Source of the DNA: Squalus acanthias
Taxonomy: Eukaryota
Direction: 5' to 3'
Assembly: GCA_030390025.1 (NCBI GenBank)
Contig: CM059431.1
Location: 136,960,001 to 137,024,000 of the forward strand
Length of the DNA stretch: 64,000 bases
The notes beneath the pieces were generated by a model. That model was not told where the DNA came from. It made no database searches and saw nothing but the letters and a program-made list of their open reading frames with translations. A program made the translations under genes and the position numbers. Below, piece by piece: positions 31,001 to 63,573 of this stretch; position 1 is the first letter of the stretch, and every line of letters begins with the position of its first letter.

Positions 31001-31725
31001 GAGACGTGCACTTTAACAGAGAACCCTGATGGTGAGAGTCTCTCTTCAAAATGTGTCCCTGAATGTTCGACACCCTCTTTTAAAGGTTTCCCTGATGCTG
31101 AAATACCGTCTTTAATAGAGGTCCCTGATGGAGAGAAGCCCTCTTTACAATTGATTACTAATGGGGAGACGCTCTCTTTAAAAGGGGTCCCTGATGTTGA
31201 GACTCTCTATTTAAATGGGGTCACTGATGGTGAGACTCCCTCTTTGAAAGGGGTCCCTGATTGCGAGATTCTCTCTTTAAAGTGAGTCCCTGATGGTGAG
31301 ACCCCCTCTTTGAAAGAGGTCCCTGATGGTGAGACTCCCTTTTTAAAAGGGGTCGCTGTTGGTGAGACTCTCTCTTTAAAAGGCGCCCCTGATGGTGAGA
31401 TTCTCTCTTGAAAAGGGATCCCTGATGGTGAGAGTCACTCTTTAAAAGCGGTCCCTAATGGGAATATTCTCTTTAAAATGTGCCCCTTATAGAAAGACAA
31501 CCTCTTTAAAAGGGGTCCCTGATTGTGAGAATCACTATTTAAAAAGGGTCCCTGATGCTGAAACCCCCACTTTAAAAAGTGTCTCTGATGGTGAGACTCC
31601 ATCTTTAATAGGGGTTCCTGGTGGTGAGACTCCCTCTTTGAAAGGGGTCCCTGATGGCGAGATTCTCTCTTTAAAAGGGGTCCCTGGTGAACAGATTCTC
31701 TCATTAAAAGGGGTTCCAGACTGGG
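28032..31725 (+). repeat. 33-bp satellite
   Basis: Tandem monomers. Confidence 0.95.
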
Positions 31726-33130: not shown

Positions 33131-33132
33131 TA

Positions 33133-36100: not shown

Positions 36101-36938
36101 AACCGTTGAGTTCTTTGCCTTCTACTTTTGTTTTTCTCCTTCCTGTCTTTAGCTTTTATCCTTGTTTCCCTTTCCTCTGTCTCCCTGCACCGGTTCCCAA
36201 CCCCCTGCCACTTTAGTTTAAACCCTCCCCAACAGCACTAGCAAACACTCCCCCTAGGACATCGGACCCGGCCCTGCCCAGGTGCAGACCGTCCCCTTTG
36301 TACTGGTCCCACCTCCCCCAGAACCGGTTCCAATGTCCAAGGAATTTGAATCCCTCCCCCTTGCACCATTCCTCTAGCCACGAATTCATTTGAAATATTC
36401 TCGTATTTCTACTCTGATTAGCACGTGGCACTGGTAGCAATCCTAAGATTACTACCTTTGCGGTCCTCTTTTTTAATTTACCTCCTAACTCCCTATATTC
36501 TGCTTTTAGGACCTCATCCCGTTTTTTACCTATATCGTTGATGCCTATGTGCACCACGACAACTGGCTGCTCGCCCTCCCCCTCCGAAATGTTCTGTAGC
36601 CGCTCCGAGACGTCCTTGACCCTTACACCAGGGAGGCAACACACCATCCTGGAGTCTAAATTGCGGCCGCAGAAACGCCTATCTATTCCCCTTACAATTG
36701 AATCCCCTATCACTATAGCTCTTCCATACTTTTTCCTCCCTGCCTGTGCAGCAGAGCCACCCATGGTGCCAGAAAGTTGGCTGCTGCCGCCTTCCCCTGA
36801 TAAGAAATCCCCCCCCCAACAGCATCCAAAGAGGTATAACTGTTTGAGAGGGGGATGGCAACACGGGACCCCTGCACTACCTGCCTGCACCTCTTACTTT
36901 GCCTGGTGATCACCCATTCACTTCCTGCCTGTATACCC
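33133..36938 (-). mobile_element. Long CR1 LINE (ORF1 esterase, ORF2 EN-RT), disrupted; interrupted by Gypsy
   Basis: ORF1 GDS...DGLHL; endonuclease GDFN/SDH; RT FADD; tail repeats. Confidence 0.93.
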
Positions 36939-38654
36939 TGTCATAAATCGCAAGTAACAACTCAGGAAGTACTACTGGGCGGCCAGCTGGGGCGCCGTCC
37001 AGGGAGTATAAATACTCAGGCATGGGCCCACCTTGGGCAGAGACAATCTGGAAACAGGAAGCTAGTGACTGCTAACTAAACCTCCATGTTTTGTTACAAG
37101 TTGATTAAAGCCTTGCTTTATGTTCAAGTGCGTAGTGAGTCTTTATTACGTCAATTTAATCAACTTGATATCGTCTCCACGCTGTGGGTGATTCGGAACA
37201 ACCAGCTGCAACTCGAACCACAGAAGGGAACTTGGGTAAGAAACTGATCCATCATGGAAAAACTCCTTAGACCCGCTCGTCTCGACCTGGACCCGAATGC
37301 ACCTGCGGCAGCAAAGGTATGGAAGCATTGGTTTCGTACCTTTAGCAACTTTCTTGAAGAATGTGGGGCGGATGTCCCTAATAAGTTACGAATGCTTATC
37401 AACTACGTGTCTCCTCATGTGTATGATTATATGGAGGACTGTATAGACTATGACACTGCTATCGAAATCTTACAGCAGCTATATGTCAAGTCCCCAAATG
37501 AAATCTTTGCTCGACACCTACTGGCCACAACTCGGCAGCAGCCTGGGGAATCACTCGATGAATTTCTCCAGAAACTTCGCAGGCTCAGCAAGCATTGTAA
37601 CCTTAAAGCAGTTTCAGCTGAACAGTATCAAGAGGAACTAATCCGCGATTCCTTTATCAATGGAATCGCGTCCCCTTTTATACGTCAGCGCCTGCTGGAA
37701 AATAAAACCCTCAATTTACAGGCTGCTTATGACCAGGCGTGTTCCTTGGACTTGGCCAAGAAAAATGCAGACACTTATCTCCCACCACGTGCACGGGCGG
37801 CGGCTATCTCCTTTAATGAGTCTTTCGGTAGGTCTCGGGCGGATGCCCCCACTGATGTTGACTCTACTCTAACAGACGACGACCCTACCCTAGAGGCCTT
37901 CGCTGATGACGACCCCGCCCTAGCAGCATCCTGGCAATCAGGAAGAAAGTGTTTCTTTTGTGGAGGGGCGTGCCATCACAGAAAATTTTGCCCGGCTCGT
38001 AATGTGACCTGCAATCATTGCAGCAAGAAAGGACACTTTTCCAAGGTATGCCAGTCACGGGCCTTTGCTAACAAGAAAGGCCACTCCTCTAAAGTATACC
38101 GGTCGAGAGCTCCTGTTAGCTTCACAGCTTCTATCTATGGAGCTGCTCCTCCCCCAAGAACTACTGTTAAGGCTACAGTTGCCGAAGGGAAAATTGCCCC
38201 TCCTCCCATCACGGCTGTTTTTCCCCAAAGTTTGTCCCATGCAGCCACGAAGGTTTCAGTAAATGGGCACAATCTAAGCGCGCTAATCGACTCCTGCAGC
38301 TCTGACAGCTTCATTAGTAAGCCGGCTGTCAACAGGTTAAAACTGCACATTTATCCCTCGGACAGGGAGATTGCAATGGCTCTGACGACTCTGACCACCA
38401 ATTCTTCTGGCTTCTGTCTGGTCAACCTCATCCGCAACGGCCGCACGTATCTCTCCACCCGGCTCGGAGTACTCGCAAACTTATGCAGCGATGTGCTTCT
38501 GGGACAGGACTTCCAGAAGCAGCACAAGAAGATCACTTTTGAGTTTGGAGGGTCAAGGCCGGATCTTACCATTTCTAAGGTGCCGTTTTGTGCACTCTCG
38601 GCGGCCTTACTCGGTGAACCCTGCCTGTTTGCCAATCTTCCCCCCCGCTGTAAA
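36939..38654 (+). mobile_element. Gypsy LTR retrotransposon 5' half (LTR 36939-37153, gag-protease), cut by the duplication junction
   Basis: Near-identical to 50133-51848. Confidence 0.93.
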
Positions 38655-41224: not shown

Positions 41225-44200
41225 TTTAAATGGGTTAGCTGATGGTGAGACATTCTCTTTAAAAACGGTCCCTGATGCTGAAACAAGCTCTTTTACAGGG
41301 GTCCCTGATGGTGAGACTCTCTCTTCAAAAGGGGTCCCTGGTGAAAAAGACTCTTTCATTAAAAGGGGTCCCTGACGAGTATACTCACTTTTAAAAAACG
41401 GCCCCTGATGGTGAGACTCTCGCTTCAAAAGGGATACCTGATGGAGAGACTTTCTCTTTAAAAGCGGTCCCTGATACTGAAACTCCCTCTTTAAAAAGGG
41501 TCCCTGATGGCGAGGTTCCCTCTTTAAAAGGGGTCTCTGACGACGAGTTTCTCTTTAAAAGAGGTCGCTGATGGTGAGACTTCCTCTTTGAAAGGGATCC
41601 CTGATGTGGAGACTCTCCAGGTAAAAGGAGACGCTGATGGTGAGACTCTCTTTAAAAGGGATCCGTTATGGTGAGACACCCTCTTTAATAGAGGTCGCTG
41701 ATGGTGAGACTCCCTCTTTAAAAGGGATCCCTGATGGGGAGACTCTATCTTTGAAAAGGGTCCCTGATGCTGAAAAACACTCTTTTAAAGGTGTCCCTGA
41801 CGGTGAGACTCTCTCTTTTAAAGATATCAGTAAAAGATAGATTCTCTTTAAAAAATGGTCCCTGATAGAAAGACTCCCTATTTAAAAGTGAGCCTTGATT
41901 GAAAGACTCTCTCTTTAAAATGGTACACCAAGAGTGAGACTCCCTATGCAAAAGGGCTCCCTGATAGAAAGACTCTCTCTTTAAAAGGGTCTCTGATGGT
42001 GAGACTCCCTCTTTATAAGGGATTTGTAATGGGGAGACTCTCACTTTAAAAGGGGTAGTTGATGGTGAGACTTTCTCTTTAAAATCGGTACCTGATGCTG
42101 AAACAAGCTCCTTTAAAGGGGTCCCTGAAGGTGAGACTCTCTCTTCAAAAGGGGACCCTGGTGGTTAGACTCTCTCATTAAAAGGTGTTCCTGACGGGTA
42201 TACACCTTTTTCAAAAGGGGTCCCTGATGGTGAGACTCCGTCTTTAAAAGGGCTCCCTGATGTCGAGACGCTCTCTTTAAAAGAGGTCCCTGATGCCGAG
42301 ACTCTCTCTTTAAAAGGGGTCCCCGATGCGGAGACTGCCTCTTTAAAACGGGTCCCTGATAGAATTACCCTCTCTTTAAAAGGGGTCCCTGATGGTGAGA
42401 CTCCCTCTTTAAAAGTGCTCCCTGATGGTGAGACTCTCTCTTTAAAAGGGGTCCTTGATGTTGAGACGCCCACTTTAAAAGTGGTCCCTCTCAGAATGAC
42501 TCTCTCTTTAAAATGGGTCCCCGAGGGTGCGACTCCCTCTTTAAAACGTATCCCTGATGTGGAGACTCCCTCATTAAAAGTGATCACTGATGGTGAGACT
42601 CTCTCTTTAAAAGAAGTTCATGACGGTGAGACTCACTCTTTAAAAGGCCCCGGATAGAAAGACTTTCTCTTTAAATGGGTCTGTGATGGGGAGACTCCCA
42701 CTTTAAAAGGGATCCCTAATAGGGAGGCTGTATCTTTAAAAAAAGGGTCGCTGATGCTAAAACACACTCTTTTAAAGGGGTCTCTGATGGTGAGACTTTC
42801 TCTTTAAAAGGTGTTCCTAATAGGTAGATTCTCTTTAAAAGTGATTCCTGTTAGAAATACTCCCTCTTTAAAAGTGAATCTTGATTGAAAGACTCTCTCT
42901 TTAAAATGGTACCCCAAGGATGACTCCCTATGTAAGAGGGCTCCCTGATAGAAAGACTCCCTGTTTAAAAGCGATTCCTAATGGGGAGACTCTCTTTAAA
43001 AGGGGTCCCAGATGGTGAGACTCTCTTTTCAAAAGTGGTCCCTGATGGTGAGACTCCCTCTTTAAAAGCTGTCCGTAATGGGGAGACTCTCTGTTTAAAA
43101 GGGGTCCCTAATAGAAAGACTCTCTCTTTAAAATGGGTCTCCTAGGGTGACACTCCCTCTTTAAAAGGGGTCTCTGGTAGAATTACTCTCACTTTAAAAG
43201 GAGTCTCTGATGGAGCGACTCTCTCTTTAAAAGAGGTCCCTGATGGTGAGACTCTCTCTTTAAAAGCTGTCCCTGATGGTGAGACTCTCTCTTTAAAAGA
43301 GGTCCCTGATGGTGAGACTCCCTCTTTAAAAGCTGTCCCTGATGGTGAGACTCTCTCTTTAAAAGAGGTCCCTGATGGTGAGACTCCCTCTTTAAAAGGG
43401 GTCCCTGATGGTGAGAGTCTCTGTTTAAAAGGGATCCCTGATAGTGAGACTCACTGTTTAAAAGGCCCCCGGATATCAAGTCTCCCTCTTAAAATGGGTC
43501 TCTGATGGTGAGACTCCAGCTTTAAAAGGGATTCCTAATGGGGACACACGCTCTTTACATTATGTCACTGATGCTGAAACGCACTCTTTTTAGGGGTCCC
43601 TGATGGTGAGACTCCCTCTTTAAAAGGGGTTCCTGATGGCGAGACTCTCTCTTTAAAAGGGGTTCCTGAAAGAAAGACGACCTCTTTAAAACTTGTCCCT
43701 GATGGTGAGACTCCCACTTTAAAAGATGTTCCTGATGATGAGACTCCCTCTTTAAAAGTGGTCCCTGATGGTGAGACTCACTCTTTAAAAGTGGTCTCTG
43801 ACGGTGAGACTCCCTGTTTAAAAGGGGTCTCTGATAGAAAGACACCCTCTTTAAAACGGGTCCTTGATGCTGACACTCCCTCTATAACAGGGTTCGCTGA
43901 TGGTGAGACTCTCTCATTAAAAGGTGTCCGTAATAGGAAGATTCTCTTTCAAAGTGATCTCTATTAGAATGAATCTCTCTTTAAAATGTTTCCCCGAGGG
44001 TGAGACCCCCTCTTTAAAATGGATCCGATAGAAAGTCTCTCTCTTTAAAAGTGGTCCCTAATGGTGAGACTCCCCCTTGAAAAGGGATCCCTGATGGTGA
44101 GACTCATTCTTTAAAAGGGATACGATGGCGAGACTCTCTTTAAAAGGGGTCCCTGCTGATGAGACTCTCTATTTAAAAGGACTTTCTGATTTTGAGACGT

Positions 44201-44918
44201 GCACTTTAACAGAGAACCCTGATGGTGAGAGTCTCTCTTCAAAATGTGTCCCTGAATGTTCGACACCCTCTTTTAAAGGTTTCCCTGATGCTGAAATACC
44301 GTCTTTAATAGAGGTCCCTGATGGAGAGAAGCCCTCTTTACAATTGATTACTAATGGGGAGACGCTCTCTTTAAAAGGGGTCCCTGATGTTGAGACTCTC
44401 TATTTAAATGGGGTCACTGATGGTGAGACTCCCTCTTTGAAAGGGGTCCCTGATTGCGAGATTCTCTCTTTAAAGTGAGTCCCTGATGGTGAGACCCCCT
44501 CTTTGAAAGAGGTCCCTGATGGTGAGACTCCCTTTTTAAAAGGGGTCGCTGTTGGTGAGACTCTCTCTTTAAAAGGCGCCCCTGATGGTGAGATTCTCTC
44601 TTGAAAAGGGATCCCTGATGGTGAGAGTCACTCTTTAAAAGCGGTCCCTAATGGGAATATTCTCTTTAAAATGTGCCCCTTATAGAAAGACAACCTCTTT
44701 AAAAGGGGTCCCTGATTGTGAGAATCACTATTTAAAAAGGGTCCCTGATGCTGAAACCCCCACTTTAAAAAGTGTCTCTGATGGTGAGACTCCATCTTTA
44801 ATAGGGGTTCCTGGTGGTGAGACTCCCTCTTTGAAAGGGGTCCCTGATGGCGAGATTCTCTCTTTAAAAGGGGTCCCTGGTGAACAGATTCTCTCATTAA
44901 AAGGGGTTCCAGACTGGG
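41225..44918 (+). repeat. 33-bp satellite (duplicate)
   Basis: Tandem monomers. Confidence 0.95.
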
Positions 44919-46323
44919 ATAGAAACATAGAAATATAGAAACATAGAAGATAGGAGCAGGAGTTGGCCATTCGTCCCCTCGAGCCTGCTCCGGAATTTAA
45001 AGAGATCCTGGCTGATTTTCCAAACTCAGTACCCAGTCCCTGCTTTCTTCCCATATCGCTTGATTCCTTTAGCCTTAAGAAATATATCTAGCTCATTCTT
45101 GAATATATTTAATGAATTGGCCTCAACTGCCTTCTGTGGTAGAGAATTCCATAGGTTCACCACTCTCTGGGTGAAGAAATTCCTCCTCATCTCAGTCCTA
45201 AATGGCTTACCCCTTATCAATAGACTGTGAACACTGTTTCTGGACTCCCCGCCATCGGGAACATCCTTCCTGCAGCTAATCTGTCTAGTCCTGTTATAAT
45301 TTTATAAGTTTCAATGAGATCCCCTCTCATTCTTCTAAACTCTAGCGAATACAAGCCCAATCGTCCCAATCTCTCTTCATACGTCATTCCTGCCATCCCA
45401 GGTATCAGTCTGGTGAATCTTCGCTGCACTCCCTCCATGGCAAGAACATCCTTCCTCAAATAAGGCGACCAAAACTGCGCACAATATTCAACGTGTGGTC
45501 TCACCAAGGCCCTGTACAACTGCAGCAAGACATCCTTGCTCCTGTACTCGAATCCTCTCGCTATGAAGGCCAACATACAATTCGCCTTCTTAACCGCCTG
45601 CTGCACCTGCATGCTTACCTACAACGACTGGTGCACAAGGACTCCCAAGTCTCGTTGCACTTCCTCTTTTCCCTATCTATTGCCGTTCAGATAATAATCT
45701 GCTTTCCTGTTTTTGCCACCAAAGTGGATAACCTCGCATTTATCCACATTATACGGCTTCTGCCATGCATTTGCCCAATCACCCAACTTGTCCAAACTAT
45801 AATGGATTTTCTCTGCATCCTCCTCACAGCACACACGCCCACCCAGCTTTGTGTCTGCTGCAAACTTGGAGAAATTACATCTAGTTCCCTCGTCTAGATC
45901 ATTAATATATATAGTGAATAACTGGGGTCCTAGCACCGATCCCTGCGTTACCCCACTAGTCACTACCTGCCACTCGGAAAAAGACCCGTTTATTCCTACT
46001 CTCTGCTTCCTGTCTGCCAACCAGTTCTCTATCCAAGTCAGTACTTTACCCCCAATCCCATGTGCTTTAACTTTGCACGCTAATCTCTTATTTGGGACCT
46101 TATCGAAAGCCTTCTGAAAGTCCAAATACACCACATCCACTGGTTCTCCCTTATCTATTCTACCAGTTACATCCTCGAAAAATTCTTGTAGATTAGTCAA
46201 GCATGATTTACCTTTTGAAAATCCATGTTGACTTTGTCCGATCCTGTCACTGTTTTCCGAGTGCTCTGCTGTTACATCTTTTATAATGGTCTCTAGCATT
46301 TTCCCCACTACCGATGTCAGTCT
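44919..46323 (-). mobile_element. CR1 LINE, 5'-truncated (duplicate)
   Basis: Same ORFs as 31726-33130. Confidence 0.92.
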
Positions 46324-46325
46324 TA

Positions 46326-49300
46326 CATAGAAACATAGAAACATAGAAGATAGGAGCAGGAGTAGGCCATTCGGCCCCTCGAGCCTGCTCCACCATTCAA
46401 TGAGATCATGGCTGATCATCCAAACTCAGTACCCTCTACCCGCCTTCTCCCCATATCCCTTGATACCTTTAGCTTTAAGAAATATATCTAACTCAATCGT
46501 GAATATATTTAATGATTTGGCCTCAACTACCTTCTGTGGTAGAGAATTCCACAGGTTCACCACTCTCTGGGTGAATAAATTCTTCCTTATTTCTGTCTTA
46601 AATGGCTTACCCGTTATCCTTAGATTATGACCCCTGGTTCTGGACTCTCCGACCATCAGGAACATTCTTCCTGCATCTAGTTTGTCCAGACCTGTCAGAA
46701 TTTTATATGTTTCGATGAGATCACCTCTCATTCTTCTATACTCCAGCGAGTATAAGCCCAATCGACCCAATCTCTCCTCATATGTAATACCTGCCATCCC
46801 AGGTATCAGCCTTGTGAATATTCGCTGAACTCCTTCGATGGCAAGAACATCCTTCCTCAGATAAGGCGACCAAAGCTGCACACAGTACTCAAGGTGTGGT
46901 CTCACCAAGGCCCTGTACAACTGCAGCAGGACATCCGTGTTCCTTTACTCAAATTCTTTCGCTATGAAGGCCAACATACAATTTGCCTTCTTCACCGCCT
47001 GCTGCACCTGCATGCTTACTTTCAGCGACTGGTGCACAAGGACACCTAGGTCTCGTTGCACTTCCTCTTCTCCCAAACTATTGCCATTCAGATAATAGTC
47101 TGCCTTTCTGTTTTTGACACCAAAGTCGATAACCTTGCACTTATCCACGTTATATTGCATCTGCCACGCTTCTGCCCACTCACCCAACCTGTCCAAATCA
47201 TCCTGGAGTTTATCGGTATCCTCCTCGCAGCACACACTCCCACCCAGCTTTGTGTCATCTGCAAACTTGGAGATATTACATTTGGTTCCCTTATCTATAT
47301 CATTAATGTATATTGTGAATAGCTGGGGTCCAAGGACCGATCCCTGCGGTTCCTCACTAGTCACTGCTTGCCACTCGGAAAAAGACCCATTAATTCCTAC
47401 TCTCTGCTTTCTGTCCGCCAACCAGTTCTCTATCCAAGTCAATACCTTGCCCCCAATCCCATGTGCCTTAACTTTACACGCTAATCTCTTTATGCGGGAC
47501 CTTATCAAAAGCCTTTTGAAAGTCCAAATACACCACATCTACTGGTTCTCCCTTATCTATTCTACCAGTTACATCCTCGAAAAATTCCTGTAGATTAGTC
47601 AAGCATGATTTACCTTTTGTAAATCCATGTTGACTTTGTCCGATCCTGTCACTGTTTTTCAAGTGATCAGCTATTACTTCCTTTATAATGGACTCTAGCA
47701 TTTTCCCCAATACCGATGTCAGGCTTACCGGTCTGTAATTCCCCGCTTTCTCTCTACCACCCTTTTTGAATAGTGGGGTAACATTGGCTACCCTCTCATC
47801 CATGGGTACAGTTCCAGATTCCATCGAATGTTGGAAGATGATCAGCAATGCATCTACTATTTCTCGGGCCACTTCCTTAATTACCCAGGATGTAGATTAT
47901 CACGCCCTGGGGATTAATCGGCCTTCAATCCCATCAATTTCCCTAACACCATTTCCCTGCAAATACTGATTTATTTCAGTTCCTCCCTTTCATCAGATCG
48001 TATGTTCTCCAACCTCTCTGGAAGGTTATTTGTGTCCTCCTTTGTGAAGACAGAACCAAAATATGCATTTAATTGGTCCGCCATTTCTTTGTTCCCCATT
48101 ATAACTTCCCCCGCTTCTGACTGCAAGGGACCTACACTTGTTTTCACTAATCTTTTTCTCTTCACATACCTATAAAAGCTCTTACAGTCAGTTTTTATGT
48201 TCCTAGCAAGCTTACTTTCATATTCTATTTTCCCCTTCTTAATTAATCCCTTTGTCCTCTGTTGAATCCTAAACTGCTCCCAATCCTCAGGGCTACCGCT
48301 TTTTCTGGCCAATTTATATGCCCTCTCCTTGGATGTTATGCTATCCCTAATTTCCCTTGTTAGCCATGGTTGAGTCACCCTTTTTGTTTTAATCTTATGC
48401 CACACTGGGATGAACAAATTCTGTAGTTCATCCATGCAGTCTTTGAATGTTTGCCATTGCCTATCCACGGTCAACCCCTTGATTGACATTCCCCAATCAA
48501 TCCTACCCAATTCGCGCCTCATACCATCGTAGTTTCCTTTATTTAAATTCAGGAACCTAGTCTCTGATTCAACGACTTCACTCTCCATCCTAATGAAGAA
48601 TTCTATCATATTATGATCACTGTGACCCAAGGGGCCTCGTACAACAAGCTTGCTAATTAATCCTTTCTCGTTACATAATACCCAGTCTAAGATGGTCTGA
48701 TCTCTGGTTGGTTCCTGGACATATTGTTCCAGAAAACCATCTCGTAAACATTCTAGGAATTCCTCCTCCACAGTATTTTTACTAATTTGGTTAGCCCAAT
48801 CTATATGTAAATTAAAGTCACCCATGATGACTGCTGTGCCCTTACTGCATGCTTCTCTAATTTCCCTTTTAATGCCGTCCCCAAACTCCGTATTACTGTT
48901 TGGAGGTCTATATACCACTCCCACTAACGTTTTCTGCTCCTTGTTATTTCTCAGTTCTACCCATACAGATTCCGCATCATCAGAGCTAATATTCTTCCTT
49001 TCAATTGTGTTAATCCCCTCTTTAACCAGCAATGCTACCCCACCTCCCTTTCTTTTTTGCCTATCTTTACTAAATATTGAATAACCCTGGATGTTGAGTT
49101 CCCAGCCTTGGCCATCCTGGAGCCATGTTCCTGTAATCCCAATCAAATCGTCTTCATTTATCTCTATTTGCGCAGCTAATTCATCCACCTTGTTCCGAAT
49201 ATCCTTGCATTAATACACAAAGCTTTCAGGCTTGTTGTTTTAACGCTCTCAGACCTATATGGAATATTATTTACTGTGACCATGTTTGATTTAAACCGTT

Positions 49301-50132
49301 GAGTTCTTTGCCTTCTACTTTTGTTTTTCTCCTTCCTGTCTTTAGCTTTTATCCTTGTTTCCCTTTCCTCTGTCTCCCTGCACCGGTTCCCAACCCCCTG
49401 CCACTTTAGTTTAAACCCTCCCCAACAGCACTAGCAAACACTCCCCCTAGGACATCGGACCCGGCCCTGCCCAGGTGCAGACCGTCCCCTTTGTACTGGT
49501 CCCACCTCCCCCAGAACGGGTTCCAATGTCCAAGGAATTTGAATCCCTCCCCCTTGCACCATTCCTCTAGCCACGAATTCATTTGAAATATTCTCGTATT
49601 TCTACTCTGATTAGCACGTGGCACTGGTAGCAATCCTAAGATTACTACCTTTGCGGTCCTCTTTTTTAATTTACCTCCTAACTCCCTATATTCTGCTTTT
49701 AGGACCTCATCCCGTTTTTTACCTATATCGTTGATGCCTATGTGCACCACGACAACTGGCTGCTCGCCCTCCCCCTCCGAAATGTTCTGTAGCCGCTCCG
49801 AGACGTCCTTGACCCTTACACCAGGGAGGCAACACACCATCCTGGAGTCTAAATTGCGGCCGCAGAAACGCCTATCTATTCCCCTTACAATTGAATCCCC
49901 TATCACTATAGCTCTTCCATACTTTTTCCTCCCTGCCTGTGCAGCAGAGCCACCCATGGTGCCAGAAAGTTGGCTGCTGCCGCCTTCCCCTGATAAGAAA
50001 TCCCCCCCCCCAACAGCATCCAAAGAGGTATAACTGTTTGAGAGGGGGATGGCAACACGGGACCCCTGCACTACCTGCCTGCACCTCTTACTTTGCCTGG
50101 TGATCACCCATTCACTTCCTGCCTGTATACCC
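46326..50132 (-). mobile_element. Long CR1 LINE (duplicate); continues at ~55393-55500 beyond the Gypsy
   Basis: ORFs 47971..49188 and 49406..50107. Confidence 0.93.
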
Positions 50133-50447
50133 TGTCATAAATCGCAAGTAACAACTCAGGAAGTACTACTGGGCGGCCAGCTGGGGCGCCGTCCAGGGAG
50201 TATAAATACTCAGGCATGGGCCCACCTTGGGCAGAGACAATCTGGAAACAGGAAGCTAGTGACTGCTAACTAAACCTCCATGTTTTGTTACAAGTTGATT
50301 AAAGCCTTGCTTTATGTTCAAGTGCGTAGTGAGTCTTTATTACGTCAATTTAATCAACTTGATATCGTCTCCACGCTGTGGGTGATTCGGAACAACCAGC
50401 TGCAACTCGAACCACAGAAGGGAACTTGGGTAAGAAACTGATCCATC

Positions 50448-53400
50448 ATGGAAAAACTCCTTAGACCCGCTCGTCTCGACCTGGACCCGAATGCACCTGC
50501 GGCAGCAAAGGTATGGAAGCATTGGTTTCGTACCTTTAGCAACTTTCTTGAAGAATGTGGGGCGGATGTCCCTAATAAGTTACGAATGCTTATCAACTAC
50601 GTGTCTCCTCATGTGTATGATTATATGGAGGACTGTATAGACTATGACACTGCTATCGAAATCTTACAGCAGCTATATGTCAAGTCCCCAAATGAAATCT
50701 TTGCTCGACACCTACTGGCCACAACTCGGCAGCAGCCTGGGGAATCACTCGATGAATTTCTCCAGAAACTTCGCAGGCTGAGCAAGCATTGTAACCTTAA
50801 AGCAGTTTCAGCTGAACAGTATCAAGAGGAACTAATCCGCGATTCCTTTATCAATGGAATCGCGTCCCCTTTTATACGTCAGCGCCTGCTGGAAAATAAA
50901 ACCCTCAATTTACAGGCTGCTTATGACCAGGCGTGTTCCTTGGACTTGGCCAAGAAAAATGCAGACACTTATCTCCCACCACGTGCACGGGCGGCGGCTA
51001 TCTCCTTTAATGAGTCTTTCGGTAGGTCTCGGGCGGATGCCCCCACTGATGTTGACTCTACTCTAACAGACGACGACCCTACCCTAGAGGCCTTCGCTGA
51101 TGACGACCCCGCCCTAGCAGCATCCTGGCAATCAGGAAGAAAGTGTTTCTTTTGTGGAGGGGCGTGCCATCACAGAAAATTTTGCCCGGCTCGTAATGTG
51201 ACCTGCAATCATTGCAGCAAGAAAGGACACTTTTCCAAGGTATGCCAGTCACGGGCCTTTGCTAACAAGAAAGGCCACTCCTCTAAATTATACCGGTCGA
51301 GAGCTCCTGTTAGCTTCACAGCTTCTATCTATGGAGCTGCTCCTCCCCCAAGAACTACTGTTAAGGCTACAGTTGCCGAAGGGAAAATTGCCCCTCCTCC
51401 CATCACGGCTGTTTTTCCCCAAAGTTTGTCCCATGCAGCCACGAAGGTTTCAGTAAATGGGCACAATCTAAGCGCGCTAATCGACTCCTGCAGCTCTGAC
51501 AGCTTCATTAGTAAGCCGGCTGTCAACAGGTTAAAACTGCACATTTATCCCTCGGACAGGGAGATTGCAATGGCTCTGACGACTCTGACCACCAATTCTT
51601 CTGGCTTCTGTCTGGTCAACCTCATCCGCAACGGCCGCACGTATCTCTCCACCCGGCTCGGAGTACTCGCAAACTTATGCAGCGATGTGCTTCTGGGACA
51701 GGACTTCCAGAAGCAGCACAAGAAGATCACTTTTGAGTTTGGAGGGTCAAGGCCGGATCTTACCATTTCTAAGGTGTCGTTTTGTGCACTCTCGGCGGCC
51801 TTACTCGGTGAACCCTCCCTGTTTGCCAATCTTCCCCCCCGCTGTAAACCCATAGCCACCAAATCGCGGCGCTTTAGCCAAGATGATCGAGCGTTTATTG
51901 AGGCGGAAATCTCTCGCCTTTTAGTCGACGGTATTATCGAGCCATGTTCATCTCCCTGGCGGGCTCAGGTCGTCATCGTGAGGAATCCCTTAAAACAACA
52001 TAAAAAACGTCTGTGTATCGATTATTCGCAGACTATTAATCTATATACCGATCTGGATGCCTACCCGCTGCCACGCATAGATGACATGGTCAACAACCTT
52101 GCCAAATACATGGTGTTCTCGACCTTCGATTTAAAAAGTGCGTACCATCAGGTGCCACTGCAAGACTCCGACAAGAAATATACGGCCTTTGAGGCCAATG
52201 GTCGGCTTTTCCAGTTTCGCCGCCTTCCATTCGGGGTCACCAATGGGGTGGCCGTCTTCCAACGGGCCAGGGATGGCCTAGACCAGCAAGAGAACTTGAC
52301 GGATACCTTTCCGTATTTAGACAATATCACTATTGCCGGCCATGATCAAAAGGAGCATGACGCCAATCTTCAGAGATTTTTTGACGTACTCCGCCGTCGC
52401 CACTTAACATTAAACGAATCCAAATCGGTGAAGTCGGTGCCATCGGTGAATATTCTTGGCTACTGGGTGGGCAACGGTGTTATTAAACCGGACCCAGAGC
52501 GACTTCGTCCACTTCAGGAGCTCCCTCCCCCGACGAACCTCGGCTCTCGTCGTCGGGCACTTGGCATGTTTGCTTATTACGCAAAATGGATACCACACTT
52601 CTCCGATAAAATACAACCCCTGCTCCATGCGAAGTCTTTTCCATTGGAAGCTATGGCTATTTCTGCCTTCAACCTCCTCAAACGACAGCTGGAGAAAGCC
52701 ACGCTTCGCTCCATTGACGAAAATCTTCCTTTTGTGGTCGAATGCGATGCATCGGAGGTGGCGATCTCCGCTACCTTGAATCAAGGTGGCCGACCCGTGG
52801 CATTCCTATCCAGAACCTTGCAGGGTAGCGTGCTCTATTACCCCCCCGTCGAGAAGGAGGCTACGGCCATCATAAGGCTGTACGCCAATGGGGTCATTTT
52901 CTTGCTCGGCTTCATTTTACGCTTATAACTGACCAGCGCTCTGTGGCCTTCATGTTGGATAACCGGAGGCGCACGAAAATCAAAAATAATAAAATTCAAC
53001 TCTGGAGGATGGAGCTGGCTGCCTTTGGATATACTATCTGTTACCGACCCGGCAAACAGAACGTGGCCCCAGATACCTTCACACGGGCATTTTGCTCCTC
53101 AATGTCAACGTCGACTCTGGCGGATTTGCATATGGACTTATGCCATCCTGGTGTGACCCGCATGTTGCACTTTGTGCGCTCCAAAAATCTACCATTTTCA
53201 ACCGAGGACGTAAAGAAAACATGCTCCTCCTGTAGGATTTGTGCAGAATTGATACCACAATTCTTTCGCCCATCAGATGGCTTACTCATACATGCAATGC
53301 AGCCTATGCAGAGGCTCAGCATAGACTTTAAAGGGCCATTGCCTTCGTCGAGAAGGAACACCTACCTACTTACGATGGTGGACAAGTATTCACGCTTTCC

Positions 53401-54746
53401 CTTCGCCTTCCCCTGCCCTAATATGCTTACCTCTACGGTAATTAAATGCCTCGATCAGGTCTTTTCCCTTTGCGGGACGGCCAATTTTATCCACACTGAT
53501 CGGGGTCCCTCCTTTATGTCGAGTGAACTTAAAAGTTATCTCTCCCAACGGGGAATCGCCTCAAGTAGGACGACACCATGGCCCAGAAATTGATCTCGCT
53601 CTGTTCCCGCGGGGGTAAGGCTTCCCCGCAATCTCTCACTCCGCTTGTGCTTTTTCAGATCCAGCTCGCACGAACTTGATGTTCCAGACATCAGCTGGGC
53701 AGTGCTTGCGTATCCCACCGGCGTAGTGAATTCGTGCGAGCTGTGGGATCACGTGACTCAGTTAGAGCCAATGGCAGCACACCATCTTCCATTCATAAGT
53801 TTCACTTACGTGCTGTGAAATCTATGAATCTTACACCACCCCAAAATAACAGCTAAACCTCAATTAAATTAAAAAAAAACCATCACATTAATAAAATAAG
53901 TATAGTTAAATAAATTAACCATTTTAAATAAAAAATTACATTTTTGAAAAGATTTCAAATCTTTTAAAAATTTATAAAAATAAACTTACCTGTCTTTAAA
54001 GTCTCTAAAAAAGATATACCTGTTAAAAAAAATTCAAAAAAATACTTAATTCACTACTTACCTTGTTAAAAGTGGTTCTTACTCCTCCTTTTTCCATTTC
54101 TAAAATCTTCCGTACTTACCTGCGCGTCCAAAGCATGAAGTGCACAGCATGCGCGCAGCCTGTAGCGCACACGCGATGCAACGAGGAACTGCCCCCTTTT
54201 CAAAAGACCAATTGCCGGTTTTCAGCGCATGCGCAGGGCATGCAGAAAACCGGCAATTGGAGAGTGAATACGCGAGAGTACGCAGTGCGTACTCTCGCGC
54301 ACCGGGATGAATTTTTGGCCCCATATCACCCAATTGGTAACGGACAGGTTGAATGATACAATGCCATCATCTGGAACGCTATCCGTCTGGCACTAAGGTC
54401 ACGCAACCTGCCGGACCAGCAGTAGGAAACGGTGCTCACCAACGCGTTACACTCTAACAGGTCTCTTCTCTCCACATCTACTAATGTCACGCCTCATGAG
54501 CGATTCTTCAAATTCCGGCGTCGCTCTACACATGGGACGTCTCTACCGTCATGGTTGGTGGCTCCAGGCTCGGTACTACTCCGGAGGTTCGTCCGGTCTG
54601 CCAAAAACGACCCTCTCATTGACGAGGTGGAGTTAACGGAGGTGAACCCCACGTATGCGCACGTACGGTACCCTGATGGCCGGGAGACCACCGTCTCGCT
54701 CCGAGATCTGGCTCCCTGCCTAACCGGTCACACAGGGCCCGAATGA
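50448..54746 (+). pseudogene. Gypsy gag-pol polyprotein (single ORF) with frameshift near 52875, stops and a MITE in integrase
   Basis: Two CCHC-like knuckles, protease LIDSC, RT YLDN, RNase H CDAS, IN HHCC and IDFKGP, DRG, YHPIGNGQVE. Confidence 0.92.
53580..54321. mobile_element. Non-autonomous DNA transposon (MITE), PIF/Harbinger-like
   Basis: Imperfect TIRs GGCCCAGAAATT / AATTTTTGGCCC; TSD CAT (or CCAT); removal restores integrase TTPYHPIGNG. Confidence 0.8.
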
Positions 54747-55499
54747 TGAAGGATCCCCCGACAATGATATCAACACTCCGCAACCCTATGAAAATGACGC
54801 CCCGCCTGGGACATCGGGGGATCTGCCGGCAACGCTACCGGATCAACTCAGGTAGCTGGACGCTCCCCGTAGGATGGCCACCCGAAACCAGGACGCCGGA
54901 CAATCTCCAGCCACGACCCGGGATGAGGCCAGCTCAGCACCTGTGGGGACCCGCACCCGGAGTCATGATATTCCCAGTCCTCCACAGGATGATCAAGATG
55001 ACGCGGACTCTACTGACTTACCGGTACGGGCCAAGTGACCCAGGCACCAGGACACGGTCCGGGGAGACGTACCTTCCAGTCACAAGCAGAGAGCTAAACG
55101 TCTGCGGCTATTTCTGGTCCGCCTAGTCCATTAAAGGAAGACTGGACTTCCAAACCTTTTAGGGAGGAAGAATGTCATAAATCGCAAGTAACAACTCAGG
55201 AAGTACTACTAGGCGGCCAGCTGGGGCGCCGTCCAGGGAGTATAAATACTCAGGCATGGGCCCACCTTGGGCAGAGACAATCTGGAAACAGGAAGCTAGT
55301 GACTGCTAACTAGACCTCCATGTTTTGTTACAAGTTGATTAAAGCCTTGCTTTATGTTCAAGTGCGTAGTGAGTCTTTATTACGTCATACCCTTTACCTG
55401 CGGTGTGACCAACTCGCTAAACGTGTTATTCACGACGTTCTCAGCGTCGCGAATGCTCCAATATGCATCCATCAGCAGCTCCAGCGCCGCAATGCGGTC

Positions 55500-58317: not shown

Positions 58318-60913
58318 AGAGTCTCATCATCTTAAAGAGGGTGTCTGACCATCAGGGACCCTTTTTAATGAGAGAGTCTCTCCACCAGGGACCCCTTTTG
58401 AAGAGGGTGTATCACCATCAGGGACCCTTTTTAAAGACGTTGTCTCACCATCAGGGACACCTTTTAAAGAGGTTGTCTCACCATCAGTTACCTCTATTGA
58501 AGAGCGAGTCTATCTATCAGGGAGCCCTTTTAAAGAGGTTGTCTCACCATCAGGGTCCTCTTTTAAAGAGAAGTCTCACCATCAGGGACCGCTTTAAGGA
58601 GAGAGTCTTTCTATCAGGGTCCCCTTTTAAAGAGGGAGTCTCACCATCAGGGACCCCTTTTAAAGAGAATCTTCCTGCTAGGCACATCTTTTAAAGAGAG
58701 AGTCTGACCATCAGGGACACCTTTTAAGGTGGGAGGGTGTCCATCCGGTACATCTTTTAAAGAGGGAGTCTCCCCAACAGGGACACAGTTTAAAGAGGGA
58801 GTCTCATCATCAGGGATCAATTTTAAACAGAGAGGCTCGCCATCAGGGACCCATTTTAAAGAGGGTGTCTCACCTTCAGGGACCCCTTTTAAGGAGGGAG
58901 TATCCCCTTCAGGGACACTTTTAATGAGCGAGTGAAACACCAGGGATGCCTTTTAAAGAGAGAGTCTCGCCATCAAGGGACGCATTTTAAAGAGGGAATC
59001 TTTCCACAAGGGACACCTTTTAAAGAGAGAGTATCGCCATTATGGGACACTTTTAAAGAGGGTGTCTCATAATGAGGGATCCCTGTAAAGAGATAGACTC
59101 ACCAACAGGAACCCCTTTCAAATAGAGAGTTTTTCGATCAGGGGCCCATTTTAAAGAGAATCTTCCTACTAGGCACACCTTTTAAAGAGAGAGTCTCACC
59201 ATCAGGGACTCATTTTAAAGAGGACGTTTCAACATCATGGACTCCTTTTAAAGAGAGAATCTCACCATCAGGTAAACTTTTAAAGAGGGTGTATCCTCTT
59301 CAGGGACCCTTTTTAATGAGAGAGACCCTCCACCAGGGACCCCTTTTCAATAGGGAGTCTCACCATCAGGGACCCATTTTAAAGAGGGAGTCTCACCATC
59401 AGGGACCCATTTTAAAGATAGAGTGTTTCTATCAGGGACCCCTTTTAAAGAGGGCCTCTTTCTATCAGGGACCACTTTTAAAGAGAGAGTCTTCACATCA
59501 GGGATCCCTTTTTAAGAGGATGTTTCAGCATGAGGGAGCCCTTTTAGAGAGTGTCTCAACATCAGGTGCCCCATTTAAAGAAGGAGTATCCCCTTCAGAT
59601 ACCCTTTTAATGAGAGAGTCTCGCAATCAAGGGACCCCTTTTAAAGAGGGTGTCTCACCATCAGGGATACCTTTAAAGAGAGAGTCTCACCATCAGGGAG
59701 CCTTTTTAAAGAGGGCGTCTCACCAGCAGGGACCCCTTTTAAAGAGAGAGATTTTCTATCAGGGACCCCTTTTAAAGAGGGAGTCTCAACCTCGGGGACC
59801 CATCTTAAAGAGAGAGTCTTTCTATCAGGGACCCCTTTTAAACAGGGCGTCTTTCTATCAGGTACCCCTTTTAAAGAGGCTGACCATCAGGTACCACTTT
59901 TAAAAAGGGTGTTTCAACATCAGGGACCCTTTTTAAAGCGGGAATCTTTCTATCAGGGTCCCCTTTTAAACAGATTCTGCCCATTAGGGACCCCTTTTAA
60001 AGAGGTTCACCATCAGGGACCCCTTTTAAAGAGAGGCTTTCACCATCACGGAGCCCTTTTAAAGAGGTCGTCTCACCATAAGGGATCCCTTTTACAGAGG
60101 GGGTCAGACCATTATGGACTCCTTTTAAAGAGAGAGTTTCACCATCAGGTACCCCTTTTCAAGCAAGAGTCTCATCATCAGAGACCCTTTTAAAGAGGGC
60201 GTCTTTCTATCAGGGAGCCCTTTTAAAGAGAGTCTTTCCATTAGAGATCACTTTTAAAGATGGAGTCTCACCAGCAGGGATCAATTCAAAGAGAGAGTCT
60301 TTCTGTCAGGGACCCCTTTTAAAGAAAAAAGTCTTTCTATCAAGGTCCCCTTTTAGAGAGAGTCATTCTATCAGGGACACGTGGTAAAGCGGGAATCTCA
60401 CCATCAGGCACCCATTTTAACGAGGGTGTTTCAGCATCAAACACACCATTAAAAGAGTAAATCTTGACATCAGGGGCCCATTTTAAAGAGGGAGTATCCC
60501 CGTCAGGGTCCCATTTTATTGAGAGAGTATCACCAAAAGGGATCCCTTTTAAAGCGGGAGTCTGACCATCAGGTACCCTTTTTAAAGAGGGTGTTTCAGC
60601 ATCAGGGACCCCTTTTAAACAGAAGTCTCAGCATCAGGGTACCGTTTAATGATGGAATCTCACCATCCGGGACACCTTTTAAAGAGATCGTCTCACCATC
60701 CGGGACCCCTTTTAAAGAGAGAGTCTCGCCATCAGAGAACCTTTTTAAACAGGAAGTCTCACCATCAGGGAAACATTTTAAGGATGGAGTCTCAACAGCA
60801 GGGGACACTTTTAAAGAGGGAGTATTTCAATCAAGGGCCCCTTTTAAAGTGAAAGACATTTTATCAGGGACCCCTTTTAAAGAGAATCTTCCTATTAGGC
60901 ACACCTTTTAAAG
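58318..60913 (-). repeat. 33-bp satellite, inverted orientation
   Basis: GAGGGAGTCTCACCATCAGGGACCCCTTTTAAA monomers. Confidence 0.95.
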
Positions 60914-63573
60914 ATGTTAATCAAGGATAGTTTAACAGCGGCAGAAAGGCAGTTCGAGGGGGATCTGCCGTCTGAGGTAATATGGGCTGAAGTTAGAAAT
61001 AGGAAAGGAGCGGTCACGTTGTTAGGAGTTTTCTACAGGCCCCCAAATAGTAATAAAGATGTGGAGGAAGAAATTGCAAAGCAGATTATGAATAGGTGTG
61101 GAGGTCACAGAGTAGTTGTCATGGGTGACTTCAACTTTCCAAATATTGATTGGAACCTTTATAGGTCAAACAGTTCGGATGGGATAGTTTTTGCACAGTG
61201 TGTGCAGGAGGGTTTCCTGACACAATATGTGGATAGGCCGACAAGAGGTGGGGCCACGTTGGATTTGGTACTGGGTAATGAACCGGGCCAAGTGTTTGAT
61301 TTGTATGTGGGAGAGCACTTTGGAGATAGTGACCACAATTCGGTAACTTTCACTATTACAATGGAGAGGGATAGGGCCATACGGCAGGGCAGGGTTTATA
61401 ATTGGGGGAGGGGTAATTATGATGCGATTAGGCAAGAATTAGGGAGTATAAGATGGGAACAGAAACTATCAGGGAAAGGCACAAACGAAAAGTGGAGCTT
61501 TTTCATGGAGCAATTACTGCGTGTCCTTCATAGGTATGTCCCTGTCAGGCAGGGAGGAAATGGCCGAGTGAGAGAACCATGGTTCACAAAAGAGGTTGAA
61601 TGTCTAGTCAAGAGGAAAAAGGAAGCGTATGTAAGGATGAGAAAACAAGGTTCAGTTGGGTCGATTGAGGGGTACAAGGTAGCAAGGAATGAGCTAAATA
61701 AAGAGCTTAGGAGAGCTAGGAGGGGGCATGAGAAGTCCTTGGCGGGTCGGATCAAGAAAAATCCCAAGGCTTTTTACTCTTATGTGAGAAATAAAAGAAT
61801 GACCAGGGTGAGGGTAGGGCCGGTCAAGGACAGTAGTGGGAACTTGTGCATGGAGTCAGAAGAGATAGGAGAGGTGATGAATGAATACTTTTCGTCAGTG
61901 TTCACCGAGGAGAGGGGCCATGTTCTTGAGGATGAGAGTGTGATAAAGGTGGATAGGCTGGAGGTGGTAGATGTTCTGAGGGAAGATGTTTTAGCAATTT
62001 TGAAGAACCTGAGGGTCGATAAGTCCCCTGGGCCAGATGGGATATATCCTAGGATTCTTTGGGAGGCAAGGGAGGAGATTGCAGAGCCTCTGGCTTTGAT
62101 CTTTGGGTCCTCACTGTCCACGGGGATGGTGCCAGAGGACTGGAGAGTGGCGAATGTTGTTCCTCTCTTCAAGAAAGGAAATAGGAATGACCCTGGTAAT
62201 TATAGGCCGGTTAGTCTTACTTCAGTGGTTGGTAAGATAATGGAAAAGGTCCTGAGGGATAGGATTTATGACCATTTGGAAAGGGGCAACTTAATCAGGG
62301 ATAGTCAACACGGATTCGTGAAGGGTAAGTCTTGCCTAACAAATTTGATTGAATTCTTTGAGGAGGTAACTAAGTGTGTAGATGAAGGTAGAGCAGTTGA
62401 TGTCGTATACATGGATTTCAGTAAGGCGTTTGATAAGGTTCCCCATGGTCGTCTCATGAAGAAAGTAAGGAGTTGTGGGATAGAGGGAAATTTGGCCGAT
62501 TGGATAAGTAACTGGCTAACTCATAGAAGGCAGAGGGTGGTGGTGGATGAAACATTTTCGGACTGGAGACCAGTTACCAGCGGTGTGCCACAGGGGTCGG
62601 TGCTGGGTCCTCTGCTGTTTGTGATTTTTATCAATGACTTGGAGGAGGGGACTGAAGGGTGGATCAGTAAATTTGCTGATGACACCAAGATTGGTGGAGT
62701 AGTGGATGAGGTGGAGGGCAGTTGTAGGCTGCAAAGAGACATTGATAGGATGCAGAGCTGGGCCGAAAAATGGCAGATGGAATTTAACCCTGATAAGTGC
62801 GAGGTGATTCATTTTGGTAGGGCAAATTTGAATAAGGATTACAGGGTCAACGGCAGGGTTCTGAGGAACGTGGAGGAGCAGAGGGATCTGGGGGTTCATA
62901 TCCACAGATCTCTGAAGGTTGCCACTCAAGTGGATAGAGCAGTAAAGAAGGCCTATGGTGTGTTAGCGTTTATTAACAGAGGGTTTGAGTTTAAGAACCG
63001 TGAGGTTATGCTGCAACTGTACAGGACCTTGGTGAGACCACATTTGGAATATTGTGTGCAGTTCTGGTCACCTCACTATAGGAAGGACGTAGAAGCATTG
63101 GAAAGAGTGCAAAGGAGATTTACCAGGATGCTGCCTAGTTTGGGGGGGAGGTCTTATGAGGAAAGATTGAGGGAGTTGGGGCTTTTCTCTTTAGAGCGGA
63201 GGAGGATGAGAGGCGACTTAATAGAGGTTTATAAGATGATGAGGGGGATAGATAGAGTGGATGTTCAGAGACTATTTCCTCGGGTAGAGGCAGCTGTTAC
63301 AAGGGGGCATAACTATAAGGTGCATGGGGGGAGATATAGAAGGGATGTCCGAGGTAGATTCTTTACTCAGAGAGTGTTTGGGGTGTGTAATGGACTGCCT
63401 GCTGTGATAGTGGAGTCGGACACTTTAGGAACTTTCAAGCGGTTATTGGATAAGCACATGGAGCACACCAGAGTGATAGGGAGTGTGATAGCTTGATCTT
63501 GGTCTCGGACAATGCTCGGCACAACATCGAGGGCCGAAGGGCCTGTACTGTGCTGTACTCTTCTATGTTCTAT
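60914..63573 (+). mobile_element. Young 5'-truncated CR1 LINE with uninterrupted 860-codon partial ORF2
   Basis: Endonuclease C-part, RT FADD, C-terminus, (TTCTAT)-type tail. Confidence 0.95.

Follow-up and report, generated by a model that had tools for sequence, protein, structure and literature searches.

The retrotransposon and its setting

The window is the whole stretch of DNA that was analyzed, 64,000 nucleotides from Squalus acanthias (GenBank assembly GCA_030390025.1, contig CM059431.1, positions 136,960,001 to 137,024,000 of the forward strand). It contains a retrotransposon with a total size of 5255 bp, bounded by two long terminal repeats (LTRs) of 215 bp each (50133-50347 and 55173-55387) that are 99.07% identical in a blastn self-comparison. 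The LTR borders were taken from this self-comparison and are independent of the inverted repeat described below. With its paired TG...CA LTRs, a TACCC target-site duplication, and the polypurine tract AGGGAGGAAGAA, the element has the LTR features of the Ty3/gypsy group (Metaviridae). The features, numbered from the first letter of the window, are as follows.

36939-38654, plus strand: duplicate of the 5' LTR, primer-binding site (PBS), and gag-pol start, with the partner at 37097-37109 and the PBS at 37155-37167
50128-50132, plus strand: target-site duplication TACCC, 5' copy, identical to 55388-55392
50133-50347, plus strand: 5' LTR, 215 bp, TG...CA (blastn self-comparison)
50201-50208, plus strand: candidate TATA-like motif TATAAATA, with the counterpart ATAAATAC in a sister family
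50291-50303, plus strand: partner segment (proposed self-primer) CAAGTTGATTAAA, reverse complement of the PBS
50306-50322, plus strand: small hairpin CUUG...CAAG directly 3' of the partner, predicted in minimum free energy (MFE) folds
50324-50345, plus strand: U5 hairpin of 9 bp, G-U pairs included, with the loop GUCU (RNAfold)
50349-50361, plus strand: putative PBS TTTAATCAACTTG, one base past the CA of the LTR, identified by its complementarity to the partner
50448-53593, plus strand: gag (two CCHC knuckles)-PR-RT-RNase H-IN frames (open reading frames, Pfam)
53594-54325, no strand assigned: foreign sequence of ~740 bp inside the integrase core, with approximate borders placed from the break in the IN frame
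54326-55040, plus strand: remainder of integrase plus the C-terminal part, broken by in-frame stops and a frameshift (list of open reading frames)
55161-55172, plus strand: polypurine tract AGGGAGGAAGAA, adjoining the 3' LTR, read in the sequence
55173-55387, plus strand: 3' LTR, with a partner copy at 55331-55343 (blastn self-comparison)
55388-55392, plus strand: target-site duplication TACCC, 3' copy, identical to the 5' copy

The coding region is carried by two overlapping open reading frames (ORFs), 50442-52928 and 52829-53593, which lie in different frames and mark a frameshift around 52830-52930. Pfam places an Asp protease (335-422), RVT_1 (529-675), and RT_RNaseH_2 (740-812) in P0001, and Integrase_H2C2 and rve in P0002. 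The resulting pol order, PR-RT-RNase H-IN, is of the Gypsy type and is the same in the intact ORF of the sister family, and motif C of the reverse transcriptase (RT) of the window element reads YLDN. The IN frame ends at 53593 and picks up near 54326 with ...YHPIGNGQVE. The ~740-bp foreign sequence between these points (53594-54325) contains internal inverted repeats. The window copy is thus defective in three ways, namely the frameshift, the ~740-bp insertion in integrase, and the stops in the C-terminal part of integrase. No Pfam match to a chromodomain was found in the two C-terminal ORFs, 54426-54743 and 54856-55035. Although defective, the copy is young, and it belongs to a compact Ty3/gypsy retrotransposon that lacks a chromodomain.

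A primer-binding site complementary to the element's own LTR

The sequence that follows the 5' LTR is ATTTAATCAACTTG, and the absence of a TGG-type tRNA PBS at this place, pointed out in a first-pass annotation of the sequence, is borne out. A single base, A50348, separates the terminal CA of the LTR (50346-50347) from TTTAATCAACTTG (50349-50361), which is the exact reverse complement, over 13 nt, of CAAGTTGATTAAA within the LTR (50291-50303, plus strand), just as that annotation had described. The 13-mer is found five times in the window, at 37097, 50291, and 55331 on the plus strand and at 37155 and 50349 on the minus strand; the three plus-strand occurrences are LTR copies and the two minus-strand occurrences are PBS copies. 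Its expectation is 0.00 in 100 dinucleotide-preserving shuffles of the window, and together with the position-defined test on 30 loci presented below this excludes a chance origin of the pair.

A hairpin in U5, also recognized in the first pass, is present at 50325-50344 as CGTAGTGA/GTCT/TTATTACG, and RNAfold lengthens it to 9 bp (50324-50345). When 50291-50361 is folded, a 13-bp duplex is predicted that encloses a 4-bp hairpin and the U5 hairpin, with an energy of -19.3 kcal/mol (z = -4.35) that was matched by 0 of 200 shuffles, and folding 220 nt gives the same local structure. The last six bases of the partner (50298-50303) are ATTAAA, 45 nt short of the LTR end, and by eye this is the sole hexamer of the AATAAA/ATTAAA type in the window LTR. 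As for the geometry, the PBS lies one base past the CA of the LTR, and the partner points towards U5 with its 3' end.

The same arrangement had been reported at 37097-37167. The sequence is indeed there, but it is not an independent insertion, since it lies inside a 13.19-kb segmental duplication that shares the flanking DNA (49500-51848 corresponds to 36307-38654 at 99.7%). The duplicate copy ends at ~38654 against a 33-bp satellite.

Genomic copies and a sister family

The window family is abundant and young. An LTR-leader query of the host assembly (3.7 Gb) returned at least 1177 first-look candidates, and the 40 genomic copies that were scored are 99-100% identical. Both arms and the hairpin are unchanged in 30 of the 30 near-identical genomic copies examined, so the window family alone is uninformative on covariation. 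The leader between the PBS and gag is about 86 nt long in this family.

A sister group was found in the same genome with the ray protein P0005 as the query. It consists of 4.4-5.3-kb elements with LTRs of 183-198 bp that are 98.5-100% identical, and the intact copies carry one gag-pol frame of 1321-1353 aa. These elements share 67% protein identity with the window copy and differ from it in U3. The sequence TTTAATCAACT is located one base past the LTR in 9/9 sister elements, with its complement 54 nt ahead of the LTR end; the distance from arm to LTR end is equal in the two families, at 54-55 nt. The sister U5 hairpin, CGTAAG...CTTACG (6-7 bp), occupies the same place and is set apart from the window hairpin by one compensatory double change in the stem, from T-A to G-C.

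Occurrence and covariation of the two arms across the clade

An alignment-based scan of metagenome contigs yielded 80 loci with 36-71% protein identity; many of them share one assembly (WLWD01...), so the independent hosts are fewer than the loci. A first set, made up of the 35 metagenome loci in which the start of gag is present and preceded by 110 nt or more, was scanned blindly for the longest inverted repeat with a loop of 20-110 nt. An inverted repeat with the layout of the window element was obtained with at least 9 nt in 33 of the 35 loci and with at least 11 nt (11-19) in 31. In all of these relatives the layout is constant, with the 3' arm after ...CA plus one base and the 5' arm 31-66 nt upstream. 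Two of the 35 scanned relatives (L042 and L060) have no such repeat, even with one mismatch permitted. The possibility raised in the first pass, that relatives would lack the complementarity, does not hold for the other 33.

A second set comprised 30 loci, namely the window element, nine loci from its own genome, and twenty metagenome loci, in which the LTR ends were set from the alignment of LTR pairs only. The 11-mer at LTR end +2 is exactly complementary to the element's own LTR in 25/30 loci, and at each of the control offsets +30, +60, +100, and +150 an exact complement occurs in 0/30 loci. By our reading, the five misses consist of three mis-set LTR ends and two single mismatches (C-A in L051 and A-A in L099).

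The arms are family-specific, with 19 distinct inner 11-mers among 22 representative families. Four arm pairs are given as examples.

TAAGCTGTTAAAA / TTTTAACAGCTTA
TTTCTAGTCGAATAAA / TTTATTCGACTAGAAA
TTCAGTTAATTAAA / TTTAATTAACTGAA
ATGTAGACAAAT / ATTTGTCTACAT

The comparison of related families for covariation between the PBS and the LTR segment, which had been suggested as a check, was carried out on a MAFFT alignment of 21 representatives (L119 was left out as misaligned), in which the 11-pair helix amounts to 231 cells. Standard pairs occupy 99.6% of the 231 cells, a percentage that is partly given by construction because the representatives were picked by the inverted-repeat search; the position-defined test has no such bias. 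Changes on both sides are seen in 9 of the 11 pairs, and there are 42 doubly changed cells, a number reached by 0 of 500 shuffles, in which 6.9 ± 2.1 such cells occur. Sliding the partner by 1-3 columns lowers the pairing to 23-50%, and RNAalifold independently predicts the same helix. Even within one family, L055 and L057 differ by G>T in the LTR arm together with C>A in the PBS. No G-U pair is found among the 231 cells of the PBS helix, whereas the window U5 hairpin does contain G-U pairs. Such strict Watson-Crick pairing is to be expected of a PBS that is copied anew from the primer every time the element replicates. The pairing of PBS and LTR is a property of the whole clade.

Other details around the two arms are conserved as well. 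In 20 of 22 rows, TTTA opens the PBS behind ...CA-A, and the partner 3' end is (A/T)TAAA followed by R-C, of which the second base is C in 90% of rows or more. The inner 11-mer is preceded by a T-rich tract and, after it, by A-G-T-T at positions -11 to -8, each of these bases being present in 16-19 of 22 rows. A hairpin that directly continues the PBS duplex, often RCCU...AGGY, appears in ~14 of 22 MFE folds by our count. The predicted folds of most relatives have hairpins inside the loop, the loop alignment being too poor for a formal count. The gag ATG lies 0-10 nt past the PBS in many relatives. The LTRs of complete pairs measure 144-290 bp, and the ends of many LTRs are ...AACA or ...ACA.

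Placement of the clade among Gypsy elements

The first-pass annotation had found no chromodomain, and Pfam supports this both for the window ORFs tested, in which PF00385 was not found, and for an intact sister copy. Neither Chromo (PF00385) nor SH3_Tf2-1 (PF24626) was detected by Pfam in the intact 1325-aa sister ORF, in P0004, or in P0005, and the chromovirus controls P0014 and P0035 score for both. Likewise, neither domain occurs among the 120 listed relatives of the sister ORF according to precomputed Pfam lists. The named hosts of these listed relatives are shrimps, a copepod, an isopod, a mantis shrimp, a sea anemone, a soft coral, a tunicate, a ctenophore, a butterfly, an ant, a stingray, and nematodes. 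The relatives obtained from three protein searches are named only as uncharacterized or hypothetical proteins, and a scan of viral contigs gave 29 pattern matches with no relative among them. Most RTs of the clade with a self-complementary PBS have Y-x-D-N in place of Y-x-D-D.

A tree of the RT-RNase H-IN core was calculated for 50 rows (IQ-TREE, LG+G4, SH-aLRT, quick search), leaving out six fragmentary relatives with short coverage. The clade forms one group of 21 rows with an SH-aLRT of 100 and a stem of 0.99 substitutions per site; 15 of these rows have a demonstrated self-complementary PBS and six are relatives known from protein only. All 10 chromodomain rows fall in another group with a support of 99. 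An RT phylogeny against Tf1 and sushi had been proposed in the first pass. In the tree obtained, the clade falls outside every chromodomain-bearing Gypsy element sampled; the comparators are chromodomain-bearing Gypsy proteins with no named Tf1, Tf2, or sushi sequence among the rows, and a search with the chromovirus P0014 gave no Tf1, Tf2, or sushi names among the 120 matches listed. Among the traits of the Tf1/sushi group, a PBS complementary to the own LTR is present, and the chromodomain, SH3_Tf2-1, and, in the sampled tree, a position on the chromovirus branch are absent. Membership in Tf1/sushi is not shown, given that the clade has neither domain and stands apart from the chromodomain-bearing proteins sampled.

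Proposed priming mechanism

Covarying, family-specific arms at a fixed position argue strongly against a tRNA primer and indicate self-priming of the Tf1 type. From the directly observed complementarity, its position, the covariation, and the conserved hairpin layout, in a clade placed apart from the sampled chromodomain-bearing Gypsy elements, we infer the cleavage and the priming itself. Judged from these sequence patterns, the whole clade probably primes its minus-strand DNA with a segment of its own RNA, wherever the transcript starts.

In the window element, the LTR segment 50291-50303 of the genomic RNA would pair back to the PBS at 50349-50361, so that the short hairpin and the U5 hairpin would lie inside the duplex loop. 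The RNase H of the element would then cleave past ...UAAA, after 50303, at the conserved junction between WTAAA and RC. The freed 3'-OH would be extended over A50348 and U5 and then, as far as the cut, over the 17-30 nt of R on its downstream side, and the resulting short strong-stop DNA would be transferred to the 3' R. Plus-strand synthesis would finally copy the primer back into the PBS, and the arms would in this way stay perfectly Watson-Crick.

The start of the transcript decides which form of self-priming is to be expected. In one form, the transcript would start well upstream of the partner, for example ~30 nt past the TATA-like motif, and the primer would be internal: a cut behind AUUAAA would release it from R, or the copy in the 3' R would serve. 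If TATAAATA and ATAAATAC are core promoters, the start would lie ~40-60 nt upstream of the partner, unlike in Tf1. The partner lies downstream of this conserved motif by 90 nt in the window family and by 73 nt in the sister family, and the length of the complementarity, which varies from 11 to 19 nt between families, means that its 5' edge is not fixed; both points agree with an internal primer. A TATA-like motif at a fixed distance upstream of the partner was not found across families, however, and most related LTRs are without one. The view taken in the first pass, that the partner is probably not the 5' end of the transcript, was based solely on the motif 90 nt upstream and is not upheld. 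In the standard scheme, plus-strand transfer favors a primer whose 5' end is the end of the complementarity. By the same scheme, an internal primer with a 5' tail would have this tail copied into plus-strand strong-stop DNA, whose 3' end would then be unpaired at the second jump unless a second cut took the tail off. In LTRs as short as 152 bp, the partner lies at ~101 (L046, ~150 bp), and a start 50 nt further upstream would leave scant U3 and little space for a promoter. We therefore regard an internal primer as rather unlikely.

The same three points, namely that TATA-like motifs are not general, that a mismatched strong-stop end would otherwise arise, and that some LTRs are short, favor a transcript that starts on the 5' edge of the complementarity or slightly inside it. 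By analogy with Tf1, we lean somewhat towards such a start, on or close to the partner's 5' edge. A strict initiator (YYANWYY) at this edge was present in 0 of 22 rows at the conserved A, and the conserved sequence there is the looser T-rich tract with A-G-T-T after it. Among the sequencing runs on record, none registered as RNA contained the element. Raw poly(A) RNA reads of one run gave 0 reads against 50031-50630, and assembled contigs over this interval break at 50133 and 50347 with loose ends, as DNA repeats would, and mark no start or end of an RNA molecule. None of the 80 metagenome loci is on a poly(A)-tailed or transcript-like contig.

The duplex might alternatively be purely regulatory, hiding the promoter-proximal poly(A) signal or serving packaging or dimerisation, and a different primer would then be used. 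The partner ends in ATTAAA in the window element and in a canonical AATAAA or ATTAAA in 13 of the 22 representative families, and by eye a U-rich TTTTGT-like motif that resembles upstream poly(A) enhancers is present 12-30 nt upstream in many families, both of which fit such a role. Against it, the remaining 9 of 22 families have no canonical hexamer in the partner (GTTAAA in four, and TTTAAA, TTAAAA, GATAAA, ACAAAT, and GTTTAA), and in L119 and L044 an AATAAA is located further downstream, inside the loop. The paired segment sits exactly at the position of a primer 3' end in the 25 position-defined loci out of 30, no alternative TGG... PBS exists in the window element or its relatives, and none of the relatives examined has TGG at the PBS position. 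The lack of G-U pairs is also easier to reconcile with templated copying than with selection for an RNA structure. A purely regulatory duplex is hence improbable. The first pass had further proposed that the duplex could mask the 5' poly(A) signal, and the overlap with ATTAAA holds in the window partner; masking as the conserved core of the arrangement does not, since canonical hexamers are missing from the partner in those nine families. For the window family, the position of the hexamer makes a dual use of the segment, with masking of the 5' poly(A) copy, plausible.

Priming by a host RNA with the end ...GATTAAA, be it a tRNA, a tRNA half, or another small RNA, with the LTR match as a secondary feature, is scarcely credible: an identical 11-mer PBS is common to three pol families that are 51-67% identical (window, sister, and WLWD01), as expected of a PBS for a host RNA, but the 19 different 11-mers each match their own LTR, tRNAs do not vary in this manner, a tRNA would not drag LTR sequence along, and ARAGORN, applied to the window only, gave one doubtful tRNA-like gene that is unrelated to the motif.

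Relation to known self-priming elements

To our knowledge, self-priming has been demonstrated solely for the Tf1-type elements of fission yeast. Lin and Levin are said to have described, in 1998, a U5 stem-loop between primer and PBS in Tf1, and a stem-loop at the corresponding place is predicted in the window and sister families. In Tf1 and Tf2, a self-primer in R pairs with the PBS, is cleaved by the RT/RNase H of the element, and starts a short cDNA of U5 and R that is then transferred (PMC5341516, PMC4600332). The present clade resembles Tf1/Tf2 of Schizosaccharomyces pombe and Tj1 of S. japonicus in having a PBS after the 5' LTR that is complementary to its own LTR RNA. In contrast to Tf1 and Tf2, which are chromoviruses, the present clade has no chromodomain and no SH3_Tf2-1 and forms a separate group (100 SH-aLRT), and the 3' end of its proposed primer is the conserved WTAAA, often a poly(A) hexamer.

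Printed predictions of self-priming concern the chromovirus relatives of Tf1 and one plant Copia lineage (PMC6317226). In the vertebrate sushi group and the plant and fungal Tcn1 clade, self-priming was predicted from PBS-LTR complementarity alone (PMC6317226), and sushi LTRs have AATAAA unusually near the LTR 3' end (PMC3601003). The present clade is similar in that the prediction is sequence-based and the hexamer is near the LTR 3' end as in sushi; sushi and Tcn1 are, however, Tf1-related lineages with a chromodomain, which the present clade lacks. Outside Tf1/sushi, self-priming has been predicted from sequence for the independent TAR lineage of Ty1/copia (Houba, Osr-1; PMC6317226), which differs in superfamily, in pol domain order, and in its plant hosts. 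Self-primed fungal elements are listed in PMC6934838 and PMC5445492, and the literature covered further includes PMC5006619, PMC8220671, and PMC554778.

The Mag family (Mag C: SURL; Jule) is similar in being compact, in its short LTRs and some of their termini, and in its animal hosts, vertebrates among them. Jule, at about 4.8 kb, carries gag and pol in one ORF, a layout that the intact sister copies recall. These features make membership in Mag conceivable. Mag C LTRs average 174 bp with the termini TGTNATRT...AYANAACA (PMC3601003); in the present clade, with LTRs of 144-290 bp, the ends ...ACAACA and ...ATAACA fit this description and ...ACGTCA and ...CCTCA do not. A link of self-priming to Mag, SURL, Jule, or chromodomain-less animal Gypsy elements was not found in the literature searched, of which the sources named here were available in part, and an earlier description is possible. 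The class of mechanism is already known; the lineage, the WTAAA-RC junction, and the poly(A) overlap are undescribed as far as searched.

Implications for the biology of the elements

The hosts of the clade include sharks and rays, tunicates, crustaceans, insects, nematodes, cnidarians, and ctenophores. It is conceivable, and we put it forward tentatively, that self-priming replaced tRNA in a pan-animal, chromodomain-less Gypsy clade, either independently of the Tf1/sushi chromoviruses or with self-priming kept from an ancestor, and with WTAAA serving twice. WTAAA would then be the point of cleavage and priming at the 5' end of the RNA and, in many families, the poly(A) hexamer at its 3' end, and the PBS duplex would silence the 5' poly(A) copy.

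The families of this genome, with 99-100% identical copies and LTRs, offer a vertebrate system for mapping the start site, the cut, and the primer. If a large clade of animal Gypsy elements that is active at present and lies apart from the chromoviruses does self-prime, tRNA-independent priming would be much older or more easily evolved than thought, and annotation tools that rely on a tRNA match in the PBS would mis-score thousands of animal elements. The elements would also be invisible to host defenses aimed at tRNA primer sites. Silencing of primer sites by tRNA fragments is the theme of PMC7472051, and this silencing would miss the elements of the clade. Escape from such defenses may help to explain their very high and very recent copy numbers.

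Genomic setting of the Gypsy element

The following features accompany the Gypsy element in the window.

10123-10197, plus strand: tRNA-like gene called by ARAGORN, its anticodon having four bases (tgta)
30000-37300 = 43193-50500: 13.19-kb segmental duplication, identity about 100%
45676-46425, minus strand: non-LTR retrotransposon remains
47974-50134, minus strand: non-LTR retrotransposon remains
49409-50134, minus strand: GDSL-esterase-type ORF1 of a non-LTR retrotransposon
~53594-54325: about 740 bp inserted into the Gypsy integrase gene
60899-63493, plus strand: non-LTR retrotransposon remains

The insertion site of the Gypsy element is within a LINE: the start of its LTR is the exact end point of the GDSL-esterase-type ORF1, and the non-LTR remains in the window also hold endonuclease (EEP) and reverse transcriptase (RT) frames. 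The segmental duplication, which contains LINE fragments together with the 5' portion of the Gypsy copy, is surrounded by arrays of a 33-bp satellite. The middle of the integrase insert is rich in A/T, and several inverted repeats lie within the insert (among them one of 19 nt at 54208/54242 and one of 14 nt at 54271/54286). The tRNA-like gene probably represents a pseudogene or a repeat derived from a tRNA.

Sequencing runs labelled as five different organisms contain near-identical Gypsy sequence (58-74% of sampled 31-mers), and therefore the family, or very close relatives of it, may be common to several species.

RT motif C variant

52400-52420 region: RT motif C, FPYLDNITI in P0001 (a Gypsy ORF of the window)

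The YLDN of the window copy also occurs in the alignment consensus of its sister family. In regex counts over 126 clade proteins, including P0165-P0283, Y-x-D-N replaces Y-x-D-D at motif C in 83; YxDD is present in 33, YLDY in one, and no motif C was detected in nine. The N variant was found in none of the 78 chromovirus comparators having the motif. The BEL-like elements Cer7-12 carry YVDN according to PMC554778, which describes the activity as untested.

U-rich motif upstream of the partner

50278-50287: TTTTGT(R)-like U-rich motif, identified by eye

Inspection by eye also placed this motif at the homologous sites of six related loci (L031, L046, L052, L098, L100, and L117) and, in many families, 12-30 nt upstream of the partner, the LTR segment proposed as self-primer. 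The motif is similar to the upstream elements that enhance polyadenylation. Should transcription begin at the partner, the motif would be confined to the 3' end of the RNA.
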